A DNA stretch of 64,000 nt, taken from NCBI GenBank assembly GCA_965207065.1, contig OZ242260.1, positions 1,280,001-1,344,000 on the forward strand. The letters are read 5' to 3'. The position numbers were made by a program, and so were the translations under genes. The notes beneath the pieces are model-generated. The model did no database searches and was not told where the DNA came from. It saw only the letters and a program-made list of their open reading frames with translations. Each line of letters begins with the position of its first letter. Within the stretch, counting starts at the first letter, position 1. Positions 37,467-39,760 of this stretch are shown piece by piece. Source of the stretch: a bacterium (lineage in GTDB: Bacteria; UBA8248).

Positions 37467-38468
37467 ATGAGCGATAAACCCGTGGTCTGGGTGGGAACCC
37501 CATTTATCCTGAATTTCGATGACCCGATGGAGATTTTTGAGCCCCTGGTGGAGGAGGGGCTGGAGGTTCGCCTGGACGAGTGCCGGGGCTACATGCCCGA
37601 GGAAGACGTGATCGCGGCCCTGCCGGACGTCACGGCCGTCATCGCGGGGGCGGAGCCTTATACGGCCAAAGTGATGGACAACGCGCCCGAGGTGAGATTC
37701 ATCGTGCGCGCCGGCGTGGGCCTGAACAACGTCGACATCCCGGCGGCCACCGAGCGGGGCATTCTCGTCGCGAACTCGGCGGGACAGAACTCCCAGTCCG
37801 TGGCGGAGCACCTCTTCGGCCTGCTGCTCTGCGCCGTCCGGCGCATCGGCTGGCTGGACGTGAACATCCGCAAGGGCCTCTGGCGGGAGATTCAGCCGCC
37901 CATGCGCCCTTTGAACGGAATGACCATGGGGATACTGGGATTCGGGAACATCGGCAAGCAGGTGGCGAAACGGGCCGTCGCCTTCGACATGAACGTGATC
38001 GCCCACGACATCGTGCAAGATGAGGAGACGGCGAATGCGCTGGGCGTGCGCTTCGTGAGCCTGGAAGAACTGGCGAGGGAATCGGACTACCTCACCTGCC
38101 ACGTGCCGCTGACGCCCGAGACGACGCACATCATAAACCGTGAGATTTTAAGCCTCATGAAGCCCGATGCCTACGTCTTCAACACTTCTCGGGGTCCCGT
38201 CTTCGACCTGGACGCTGTTACGGAGGCTCTGCAAGAGGGTGTCATCCGGGGCGCAGGAATCGACGTGTTCCCCGAGGAGCCGCCCGATTATTCGCATCCC
38301 GTATTCGCGCTCGAGAATGCCGTGCTCGCCCCCCACTTGGGCGGCCGGGGCGAGGATGCGATTCGCAACACGCTCCACCACGCGACCAGGTGCGTGCTCG
38401 CCTACTTCCGGGGCGAGCGGCCTTCCACCCTCGTAAACCCCGAAGCCTACGGGGTGCGGGGGAGGTGA
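37467..38468 (+). CDS. Phosphoglycerate dehydrogenase-like D-2-hydroxyacid dehydrogenase
   Basis: RAGVG.NNVD, GFGNIG, NTSRG, DVF.EEP, PHLGG. Confidence 0.92.
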   Translation: MSDKPVVWVGTPFILNFDDPMEIFEPLVEEGLEVRLDECRGYMPEEDVIAALPDVTAVIAGAEPYTAKVMDNAPEVRFIVRAGVGLNNVDIPAATERGILVANSAGQNSQSVAEHLFGLLLCAVRRIGWLDVNIRKGLWREIQPPMRPLNGMTMGILGFGNIGKQVAKRAVAFDMNVIAHDIVQDEETANALGVRFVSLEELARESDYLTCHVPLTPETTHIINREILSLMKPDAYVFNTSRGPVFDLDAVTEALQEGVIRGAGIDVFPEEPPDYSHPVFALENAVLAPHLGGRGEDAIRNTLHHATRCVLAYFRGERPSTLVNPEAYGVRGR

Positions 38469-38474
38469 GGCCTG

Positions 38475-38933
38475 CTACAAAGTGCCGTTGATGGCGTAGT
38501 TCAGTATGCGCACCACCTGTTCGGGCTCTTCGGCCACGGCCATGGCGGCAGCATCGACTTCCTTGAGCGCGTGGGTGTGGCCCGGGTCGTGCAGAGTGAT
38601 GACGGCTTTTCCCAGAGCCGCCGCGTAGCCCGCATCGAAAGCGGCGTTCCACTGCCTGTATTTCTCACCGAAGCGCACGACCACGACGTCGGCCTTCTCG
38701 ATGAGCGTACGGGTTCTGATGGCGTTCACACCCGCGCCCTTGCGGTCTTTCCAGAACGGTTTTTCCTCATCTCCGAGGATGGACACGCCGCAATCGTCAC
38801 TCGCGTCGTGGTCAGTTACGGGGGCGAGAAAGGTTACCGGCAGACCCGCCTTTTCCGCGCCCTCGGTGATCCGCTCGCGCCAGTCGGTGTGCACTTCTCC
38901 CGAAAGATAGACCGTCCAACTTGTCTGAGACAT
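38475..38933 (-). CDS. ytoQ: YtoQ family protein
   Basis: VYLSGE.HTDWR, H.ASDDCG, RFGEKYRQWNAAFDAG, HALKEVD. Confidence 0.88.
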   Translation of the reverse strand: MSQTSWTVYLSGEVHTDWRERITEGAEKAGLPVTFLAPVTDHDASDDCGVSILGDEEKPFWKDRKGAGVNAIRTRTLIEKADVVVVRFGEKYRQWNAAFDAGYAAALGKAVITLHDPGHTHALKEVDAAAMAVAEEPEQVVRILNYAINGTL

Positions 38934-39003
38934 GGAACGCGCTCCTTTATGCTTTGAATTAAATGATGTGAAAGATGAAGGTTTCTCGTTTATTGAAGAA
39001 GTG

Positions 39004-39033
39004 AAAAACCCCGGCCCTCGCGGACCGGGGTTT
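39004..39033 (-). terminator. Intrinsic terminator (minus strand)
   Basis: AAACCCCGG-loop-CCGGGGTTTTT when read on the minus strand. Confidence 0.75.
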
Positions 39034-39108
39034 CCCATCGTTCGGTGGTCTGGTGGGGATTCGCCTGGGCGAAGATGAACCCGGTGAATCTCCTCAGGGC
39101 TCTCTCCC

Positions 39109-39147
39109 CTAGGCTCCAGCCACCTCGTCCCTACAGTCTATTTTCAT
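39109..39147 (-). CDS. 12-aa small ORF MKIDCRDEVAGA
   Basis: ATG 4 nt after AGAAAGGAGGTGATCC; own promoter-like and terminator elements. Confidence 0.5.
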   Translation of the reverse strand: MKIDCRDEVAGA

Positions 39148-39179
39148 ATTAGGATCACCTCCTTTCTGACGTACCTGGG

Positions 39180-39208
39180 ATCATCGAAAAAGTGAGCGGA
39201 AAAGTCAA
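39180..39208 (-). promoter_or_regulatory. Putative sigma70 promoter for the small transcript
   Basis: TTGACT-17 bp-GATGAT on the minus strand, divergent from the tRNA. Confidence 0.45.
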
Positions 39209-39306
39209 GGCGCGATCTTGGCGGCGGACTGACAGGCCCGCGCCGTCCGTGATATACAAACCACCGCGTGGCCAATTCGCGCTTTCACGCCACGGCCCCA
39301 CCCCGC

Positions 39307-39401
<95 letters not shown>

Positions 39402-39530
39402 TCGATTCTTTCAGCCTGATATACGAACGGTGCATACTTATATCTAATTATATTTATTATGTTTATTCTTTTTTGTGTTTTGTTTGAAATCTACTGACCG
39501 ATGCTTGTAATCAAAGCGAATGCGGATTGA

Positions 39531-39760
39531 TTATAATTTACGCGTATCCCAGAGGCGCTCAGCGCCTCCGGACACCACGCCCCAGGAGGTGACTGCCCGG
39601 ATCGTGAGGCCCCTGTCCCCGGAGCCTGCGGAGTAAAAGAGCGTGGCGCTCACGCCCCATTCCTCATAGTATGCCTGTTCGTGCGCGATGAGACCGCGCG
39701 CGCCCATCTCCACCGTGAGGCCGGTGGGATTCGAGTAGCGGAACCCGAGGCGAAGCCCGT
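39531..39760 (-). pseudogene. Fragment of autotransporter-like beta-barrel protein
   Basis: GLTVEMGARGLIAHE...EWGVSATL.Y..G...RGL amphipathic strands; no start or N-terminus. Confidence 0.55.

Follow-up and report, generated by a model that had tools for sequence, protein, structure and literature searches.

A widespread stand-alone small RNA gene with an extended anti-16S tract and a conserved mini-ORF: a candidate translation-gated RNA switch

On the minus strand of the 64,000-nt window analysed here (the whole stretch of contig OZ242260.1 presented above), between a divergent tRNA-Ser gene and ytoQ, lies a short segment in which an unusually long complement of the 16S rRNA 3' tail is followed by a very short open reading frame and a structured 3' end. 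A first-pass annotation of this DNA took the segment for a dedicated small gene, and offered a 30S-sequestering RNA, a micropeptide or a leader/attenuator of ytoQ as its possible identity. The locus therefore raises two questions: whether the segment is indeed a gene of its own, and what such a gene would do with a ribosome-binding site of this kind.

The layout of the locus is that of an independent transcription unit (Table 1). The promoter named in the first-pass annotation, TTGACT-17-GATGAT, is the sole promoter-like site within 38400-39700 (1 found by the scan, compared with 0.6 +/- 0.7 in shuffled sequences), and sequence conservation sets in at the predicted start site, 39172, where ACGUC, ACGC or ACAC is found across all clades. 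The intrinsic terminator that had been described at the other end is also borne out, since RNA contigs stop there and RNAfold forms the hairpin, although the site is absent from the list of a consensus terminator scanner. Comparing four RNA-library runs with the region 38600-39500, we found in run X3 a 169-nt RNA contig that corresponds exactly to 39004-39172, free of mismatches (0 differences) and of loose ends, and in run X2, which comes from a different study, a contig that matches 39006-39169 and then continues into unlike sequence; ytoQ lacked coverage in both runs. Run X1 yielded contigs on ytoQ (38777-38976) and on 39168-39319 and none on the element itself, contig gaps proving nothing in such data, while coverage in run X8 was limited to the tRNA. 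RNA contigs establish presence in a library and suggestive ends, with strand and level not readable from them, and the contig depth of about 5 in two runs is accordingly no measure of RNA level; as evidence they are suggestive, if weakly so, of an element transcribed as a unit. Taken together with its own promoter and terminator, its single copy in the genome and its conservation across lineages (see below), the element is a stand-alone small RNA (sRNA) gene with a sigma-70-type promoter, an A at +1, a length of about 169 nt and an intrinsic terminator, and the proposal of a dedicated small gene is upheld.

Table 1. Features of the sRNA locus and its neighbours, in window coordinates.
Feature	Position	Strand	Basis or remark
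-35 hexamer TTGACT	39203-39208	minus	TTGAC retained among relatives
-10 hexamer GATGAT, spacer 17 nt	39180-39185	minus	GATAAT, CATGAT or TAAACT at the equivalent position in relatives
Predicted +1 A, 7 nt past the -10 hexamer	39172	minus	Edge of the run X3 RNA contig; onset of conservation
Anti-16S tract AGAAAGGAGGTGATCC, extended Shine-Dalgarno, 16 nt, 6 nt from the 5' end	39152-39167	minus	Complements the 16S 3' tail
ORF MKIDCRDEVAGA, 12 codons (ATG 39147, TAG 39111-39109)	39109-39147	minus	Start and stop in-frame in 98/98 distinct copies
Invariant GAGGUG: Glu-Val codons, Shine-Dalgarno-like, onset of the P1 5' strand	39121-39126	minus	Constantly 9 nt ahead of the stop
P1 5' strand GGUGGCUGG, within the ORF	39116-39124	minus	Fold and covariation
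P1b 5' strand GCCU, takes in the U of the stop codon	39111-39114	minus	RNAalifold alignment
P2 5' strand GGGGAGAGAGCCC	39097-39109	minus	Fold and alignment
Segment c GGAGAUUC, P2 apical loop, alternative partner of e	39086-39093	minus	Masked folds; homologous pairing covaries
P2 3' strand GGGUUCAUCUUCGCC	39068-39082	minus	Fold and alignment
P1b 3' strand AGGC	39063-39066	minus	RNAalifold alignment
Segment e GAAUCCCC, unpaired in the rod (internal loop, 3' side), alternative partner of c	39055-39062	minus	Alignments, masked folds
P1 3' strand CCAGACCACC, resembles the 16S tail core	39044-39053	minus	Fold and covariation
Intrinsic terminator: G+C-rich hairpin (39036-39009), then U5 (T5) to 39004	39004-39036	minus	RNAfold; RNA contig ends 39004 and 39006 (two studies)
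ytoQ (PF11071, 222 bits), 70 nt past the T-tract	start 38933	minus	Same strand as the sRNA gene
tRNA-Ser(GGA)	39307-39399	plus	Divergent from the sRNA gene

The tract near the 5' end, AGAAAGGAGGTGATCC, is perfectly complementary to the final 16 nt ahead of AAGG in the genome's own 16S gene, of which a single copy was detected (G000:C1:1914131-1915682). Across the 4,476,866-bp genome this 16-mer has 2 occurrences, one at the sRNA locus and the other antisense to the 16S end (a reversed-pattern control gave 0). When all 14,133 GGAGG sites on both strands were ranked by contiguous complementarity to 16S, the runner-up reached 12 nt (1 site), followed by 11 nt (9 sites), so the 16-nt complementarity is a clear outlier in its own genome, and the first-pass description of the tract as perfect and far longer than a normal Shine-Dalgarno sequence is accurate. 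Downstream of the 16S gene lie two tRNAs and the 23S gene, the genome being a single 4.48-Mb contig.

Pairing of this length is a property of the whole family. From the 129 of 131 loci that could be parsed by regular expression we derived 78 distinct copies, and all 78 keep 13-16 nt of contiguous pairing (58 copies with 16 nt, 19 with 15 nt, one with 13 nt) with the 16S tail GGAUCACCUCCUUUCU, the identity of which was checked in clade-2 genomes G067, G068 and G069 and assumed for the remaining copies. All but one of the internal substitutions in the tract are A-to-G or C-to-U changes, which preserve a G.U pair, and in all clades the tract lies 5-6 nt from the RNA 5' end. Part of the tract pairs with the P1 3' strand in the full-length minimum-energy fold of the window RNA, so that ribosome loading may itself be gated.

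The element proved to be widespread. A BLAST-type search detected it in all 22 genomes of the genus, where identity is 83-97%, and in 34 of the 36 genomes of the family. When species-representative genomes were scanned with a motif, 43 loci emerged, with one clade deposited as Nitrospinota, Tectomicrobia or 'bacterium' MAGs and a second as Candidatus Binatia, Syntrophobacterales, Deltaproteobacteria or Thermodesulfobacteriota MAGs. Covariance model R1 identified one copy in the window's own genome and placed the element, as a single-copy gene, in 43/51 genomes of its phylum (families f1 37/41, f4 5/7, f2 0/1 and f3 0/1), as well as in 108/121 sampled genomes of the G067 order, which belongs to another phylum (104/117 without four unpublished genomes included in that tally). 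An even sample of 151 genomes of G067's phylum contained only G067 plus two matches at E ~0.003-0.004, indicating that within this phylum the family is concentrated in one order. Model R2, for which 61 sequences from the window's phylum and the G067 order were used, reached further: among 100 genomes from other phyla, 12 gave a match at E <= 0.01, and six of these at E <= 1.7e-8; the seven distant R2 genomes that we inspected carried all hallmarks (7/7), and promoter-like hexamers and a terminator were found with every inspected copy in all clades. The search proposed in the first-pass annotation, for tract, short ORF and terminator outside rrn operons, was thus productive in more than 100 genomes, with pairings that covary and a peptide that is barely conserved.

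The 12-residue ORF read in the first-pass annotation is genuine as a frame. In each of the 98 distinct copies an in-frame start (85 ATG, 7 TTG and 6 GTG), located 5-12 nt past the GGAGGUG core of the tract, opens an uninterrupted frame that closes with a stop placed exactly three codons past GAGGUG (91 TAG, 5 TGA and 2 TAA). The census regular expression missed 5 of the 131 loci and a looser form missed 2; for L028, L029 and L030, 12-codon frames were read by eye from the alignment, L074 and L076 being duplicates of L029 and L028. ORFs of 10, 11, 12, 13 and 14 codons occur, every difference in length amounting to whole codons, and in family f4 the start has moved by exactly one codon and a one-codon insertion is present, leaving the frame intact. 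The window copy encodes MKIDCRDEVAGA, other clades have MSDICSCEVTET, MIDKCTVCEVAET and MKKSSCSDREVAEV, and among distant members MSLEHSEVAGT and MPSTEKWIAEVAVR occur; the N- and C-terminal residues of the peptides vary freely across clades, and only Met, Glu and Val are universal, so that the purifying selection on the peptide that would mark a dual-function sRNA was not found. At the RNA level, the last five codons and the stop make up the 5' strand of P1, of P1b and of the onset of P2. We infer that the peptide is a by-product.

Folding of the RNA from 39180 to 39000 gives -79.3 kcal/mol (z -3.5), a value equalled by 1 of 200 shuffles. The predicted fold contains the long-range pairing of the 3' region back onto the ORF that had been suggested from the sequence, here termed P1, in which GGTGGCTGG (39124-39116) pairs with CCAGACCACC (39053-39044), and compensatory changes in relatives bear it out. 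Using RNAalifold on 44 sequences, we recovered P1 and P1b together with the base of P2, and compensatory changes were seen at 11 of the 20 pairs; among the P1b columns, 64/120 are GC in 29 sequences and AU in 15, and 63/121 are CG in 25 and GC in 13. The complete rod, consisting of P1 and helices a:d and b:c, was evaluated in 35 of the 38 distinct G067-order sequences (L172, L174 and L178, which have long insertions, were left out). In this set 96.9% of cells were paired, slid controls reaching <=52%, and 8 pairs had changed on both sides, compared with 3.3 +/- 1.0 in shuffles and reached by 0/500 of them, a significance that is overstated by the kinship among sequences of a clade. Unconstrained minimum-energy folds nonetheless formed the rod in only 11 of 18 representatives.

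The same 35 sequences also support a second helix, c:e, of 8 pairs, 4 of which show double changes, with 90.7% paired. Its covariation can be followed by eye across clades, in the combinations GGGGAUUC/GAAUCCCC, GGAGAUUC/GAAUCUCC, GGGAAUUC/GAAUUCCC, UCGGAAUU/AAUUCCGA and GAUUGCAA/UUGCAAUC, and segment e is the best-conserved 3' motif of the family (AAUCCC...CAG). In the rod, e serves as the 3' internal loop and c is enclosed by P2, so that one fold competes with the other unless an unusual pseudoknot accommodates them both. Rod and c:e might indeed coexist as a pseudoknot instead of alternating; with an 11-bp stem and 2-nt linkers, a classical H-type arrangement of a:d and c:e seems improbable on steric grounds. 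When the 5' part of the window RNA was masked as by a ribosome at codon 8 or at the stop, the rod was abolished in the predicted fold and GGAGAUUC paired with GAAUCCCC, whereas the rod persisted when the initiation region alone was masked. The inner hairpins listed in the first-pass annotation divide accordingly: GGAGATTC/GAATCCCC stands, as a competing alternative to the main hairpin, and TTCGCCCAGGCGAA was rejected, as it is lost in L028, L030 and L031 in the alignment read by eye. The P1 5' strand never varies, so the conservation of GAGGUG can be ascribed equally to pairing, to coding or to Shine-Dalgarno likeness.

The first-pass annotation had counted a match to an already described Rfam family against its proposal, and here the outcome is divided. 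The model of RF02471 (Ms_IGR-5), an sRNA of Actinobacteria and so of a different phylum, gives the window copy (G000:C1:1319020-1319172) 14.0 bits (E 1.34) against a cut-off of 45, ranking it fourth among chance-level matches, and an Rfam scan of 6 kb around the element returned no RF02471 match at E <= 1. A link nevertheless runs through intermediates: L183 and L185 were found by R2, which was built without either, at 58.1 and 45.2 bits, and both exceed the RF02471 cut-off, at 52.3 and 59.4 bits. Moreover, when 13 family loci were compared with RF02471, ten reached E <= 0.1, eight of them sub-threshold at 27-39 bits. Judged by these model scores, the window element is linked to Ms_IGR-5 by way of L183 and L185, and is a distant variant in a widespread sRNA superfamily of which RF02471 is the actinobacterial branch. 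Compared by eye, the RF02471 consensus shares the order of blocks, namely a 5' ACAC, a GGAAGGAGGUGGUCC tract, a UUG-started frame, and GAGGUG plus three codons and UAG, followed in the 3' part by a hairpin, AAUUCCCC, CAGUCACC and a terminator. Its consensus structure differs from that of the window element in that part of the tract is paired, AAUUCCCC...CACC is unpaired, and P1 and c:e are lacking.

According to the available text of the respective reports, Ms_IGR-5 is validated, uncharacterised and NAD-capped at its +1 A in M. smegmatis (10.1101/2021.12.14.472595), is detected in S. lividans RNA-seq (PMC8079986) and is present in M. smegmatis cold-stress data (PMC10454040). The available text of published accounts of Ms_IGR-5, the original 2013 description aside, makes no mention of an anti-16S tract, an ORF or a switch. 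In the openly accessible literature searched, no functional study of Ms_IGR-5, CC2171 or their loci was found, and queries on an anti-Shine-Dalgarno sponge, an extended-Shine-Dalgarno sRNA and the tract sequence gave only mentions of 16S primers and unrelated work. The predicted +1 is an A in every clade (ACG... or ACA...), and by analogy with Ms_IGR-5 NAD-capping might be general in the family.

A likeness of another order was seen with RF01867 (CC2171), a Caulobacter sRNA whose consensus opens with GAAAGGAGGUGAUCC, then GUG, like the window tract. The window element aligns with it end to end (1-159 of 159), at 20.6 bits (E 0.056), and L187 scores 28.8, both far short of the cut-off of 75; the downstream structure differs, and the likeness is limited to the 5' design. 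CC2171, whose function is given as unknown in the available text of a study in Methylorubrum, was confirmed there by northern blot (10.1101/2022.01.24.477521). A 5'-terminal anti-16S tract may therefore be a recurring sRNA design beyond the present family.

What would a gene of this design do? Tentatively, and as an explanation that still falls a little short of probable, we infer that it encodes a ribosome-loaded, translation-gated RNA switch acting in trans. The extended Shine-Dalgarno tract would load a ribosome at the extreme 5' end of the RNA, and translation of the mini-ORF would then unzip the 5' strands of P1, P1b and P2. As long as the ribosome occupied codons 8-12 or the stop, the 3' half would rearrange into the c:e hairpin, thereby hiding the conserved AAUCCC loop and freeing the tail-like P1 3' strand, such that the conformational state of the RNA would report ribosome engagement. 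In addition, with GAGGUG at a constant 9 nt from the stop, the ribosome's 16S tail could re-pair there at termination. Since the neighbouring genes are not conserved, the output must act in trans, and its recipient could be the ribosome itself or a protein, or else target RNAs contacted through either the AAUCCC loop or the P1 3' strand that resembles the tail.

Action in cis was the obvious alternative at this locus, where ytoQ indeed starts on the same strand at the distance of about 70 nt given in the first-pass annotation. Like ribosome-mediated attenuators, the element has a Shine-Dalgarno sequence, an intrinsic terminator and, upstream of it, a short ORF, presumably translated, that overlaps the first strand of competing hairpins; in the genus this arrangement precedes a same-strand gene, and the GGGUU of the P2 3' strand could, as read from the sequence, pair with the 5' strand of the terminator. 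Unlike such attenuators, it has no regulatory codon run in the ORF and no conserved same-strand gene to be regulated; a search by eye for a conserved antiterminator turned up only the possible GGGUU/AACCC pairing of the window's clade, with no equivalent seen in the G067 order. ytoQ follows the element only within the genus, whereas in sister genera the next gene downstream is URO-D (hemE), a glyoxalase gene or a Cupin-HTH gene, in family f4 it is a lexA-like gene with its own conserved promoter, and in distant members unrelated genes are found; in L027 and L030 (AA_kinase and PNPOx) and in six of the six clade-2 loci scanned (Cu-oxidase_4) the next gene is even convergent. As a leader of ytoQ the element thus fails, and a leader-peptide attenuator of whatever gene lies downstream is highly improbable. 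Hardly better placed is the micropeptide, in which the 10-14-residue peptide would be the functional product. The strong ribosome-binding site and the conserved frame would suit it, as would the Cys found one to four residues ahead of Glu-Val in many copies, with TGC/TGT synonymous variation at this position, and the C-x-x-C of many G067-order copies. This Cys is missing, however, in L182, L184 and L186 and out of its conserved position in L185; codon 7 in the window's phylum is GAC, AGC, GGC or TGC, its third base fixed while the residue changes; and the Glu-Val codons, the only conserved stretch within the peptide, double as a strand of P1, which leaves a functional peptide unlikely to a marked degree. 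That the locus is an rRNA-operon remnant or a chance match can be practically dismissed: on the plus strand the sequence does resemble the 3' end of 16S with a tRNA gene behind it, but identity with the 16S region ends exactly at 16 nt, and tract, ORF and structure are conserved in well over 100 genomes amid other neighbours.

Ribosome sequestration, the remaining proposal of the first-pass annotation, carries more weight, and we consider it possible if rather unlikely. The RNA would then be a ribosome-directed counterpart of 6S RNA, in which the 13-16-bp tail duplex and a stable hairpin just beyond the initiation footprint trap the 30S subunit or the 70S ribosome and translation of the mini-ORF serves as release. 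A tract that spans the whole 16S tail, with variants that preserve the pairing, speaks for such a role, as do a second Shine-Dalgarno-like GAGGUG at a fixed distance ahead of the stop and a single-copy, stand-alone, broadly conserved gene reminiscent of housekeeping RNAs. P1, moreover, starts at +24 (counted from the start-codon A), just beyond the footprint of an initiating ribosome. A sponge would, on the other hand, require many copies per cell, a quantity that contig depth does not gauge, and neither the covariation of c:e nor the conservation of the AAUCCC loop would be explained. A broader version, somewhat less probable again, joins trap and switch across phyla: as a 6S-like, ribosome-directed RNA, the mRNA mimic would dock on the entire 16S 3' tail and hold the ribosome before a stable hairpin, translation of the 10-14-codon frame would reset it by flipping it to the second fold, and Ms_IGR-5 would be the first-named member. 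The tract and ORF might, alternatively, only shield a conventional base-pairing sRNA from 5'-end-dependent decay, with the AAUCCC loop as the regulator, an option we find unlikely. It agrees with the position of the tract close to the 5' end in all clades and with the conserved, C-rich unpaired loop, which resembles the seed regions of sRNAs. The stabilisers of the STAB-SD/hbs type, as portrayed in the available text of PMC5737220 and PMC4113751, the latter with a discussion of STAB-SD, likewise have a strong ribosome-holding, Shine-Dalgarno-like sequence near the 5' end. What sets the window element apart from them is that its tract pairs over 13-16 nt and leads into a start codon with a conserved frame, and that the RNA stops at a terminator of its own instead of running on into an mRNA. 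A STAB-SD-like site would be expected to lack a usable start codon, which all 98 copies possess, and a mere shield has no need for a conserved frame, for a structurally fixed stop, or for 16 instead of about 9 nt of pairing.

Viewed as a family, an actinobacterial sRNA that Rfam lists without an assigned function appears, on the model scores, as one branch of a much wider group, most of which the RF02471 model and its consensus structure miss. The design points to the ribosome: the tract can pair with nearly all of the 16S tail, the frame is preserved while the peptide drifts, and two competing folds both covary. Should translation gate the fold, as in the trans-acting switch that we tentatively favour, the family would represent a general bacterial device to read out or buffer ribosome availability, and its members in cultivable model organisms that are not pathogens (M. 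smegmatis, Streptomyces) make a direct test possible.

Several further observations were made at these loci. GGA motifs in the tract and in the P2 loop brought a CsrA/RsmA sponge into consideration, which was rejected since PF02599 was not found in the window's own genome, 96% complete, in a search that was positive in 3 of 14 named genomes used as control. Two genomes of the G067 order, G292 and G307, gave two matches each, on short contigs, which could be due to duplication or to assembly redundancy. In L107-L111 (f4), a conserved CTTGACTTTCGT...TTTCG is located about 50-80 nt past the terminator, ahead of the lexA-like gene, whose product begins MYLTKRQRQILDF...; this is probably the lexA promoter with its operator. 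An X8 contig at 39305-39402 (depth 167) joins the 3' end of tRNA-Ser to its own 5' end, with 16 other letters between, and could stem from tandem tRNA copies in a related organism or from an intermediate that is circular or permuted. The element of L112 (genus g5) likewise has a tRNA beside it (1019-1104), and also an SRP RNA (RF00169, 891-989), both on the minus strand, so the sRNA gene may travel with stable-RNA genes in this family. Finally, a Phage_int_SAM_5 integrase-like gene lies immediately upstream of the element in L028 (1-735, minus strand) and in L061 (1860-3023, plus strand), and integration might target the conserved sRNA gene, as it does tRNA and tmRNA genes.
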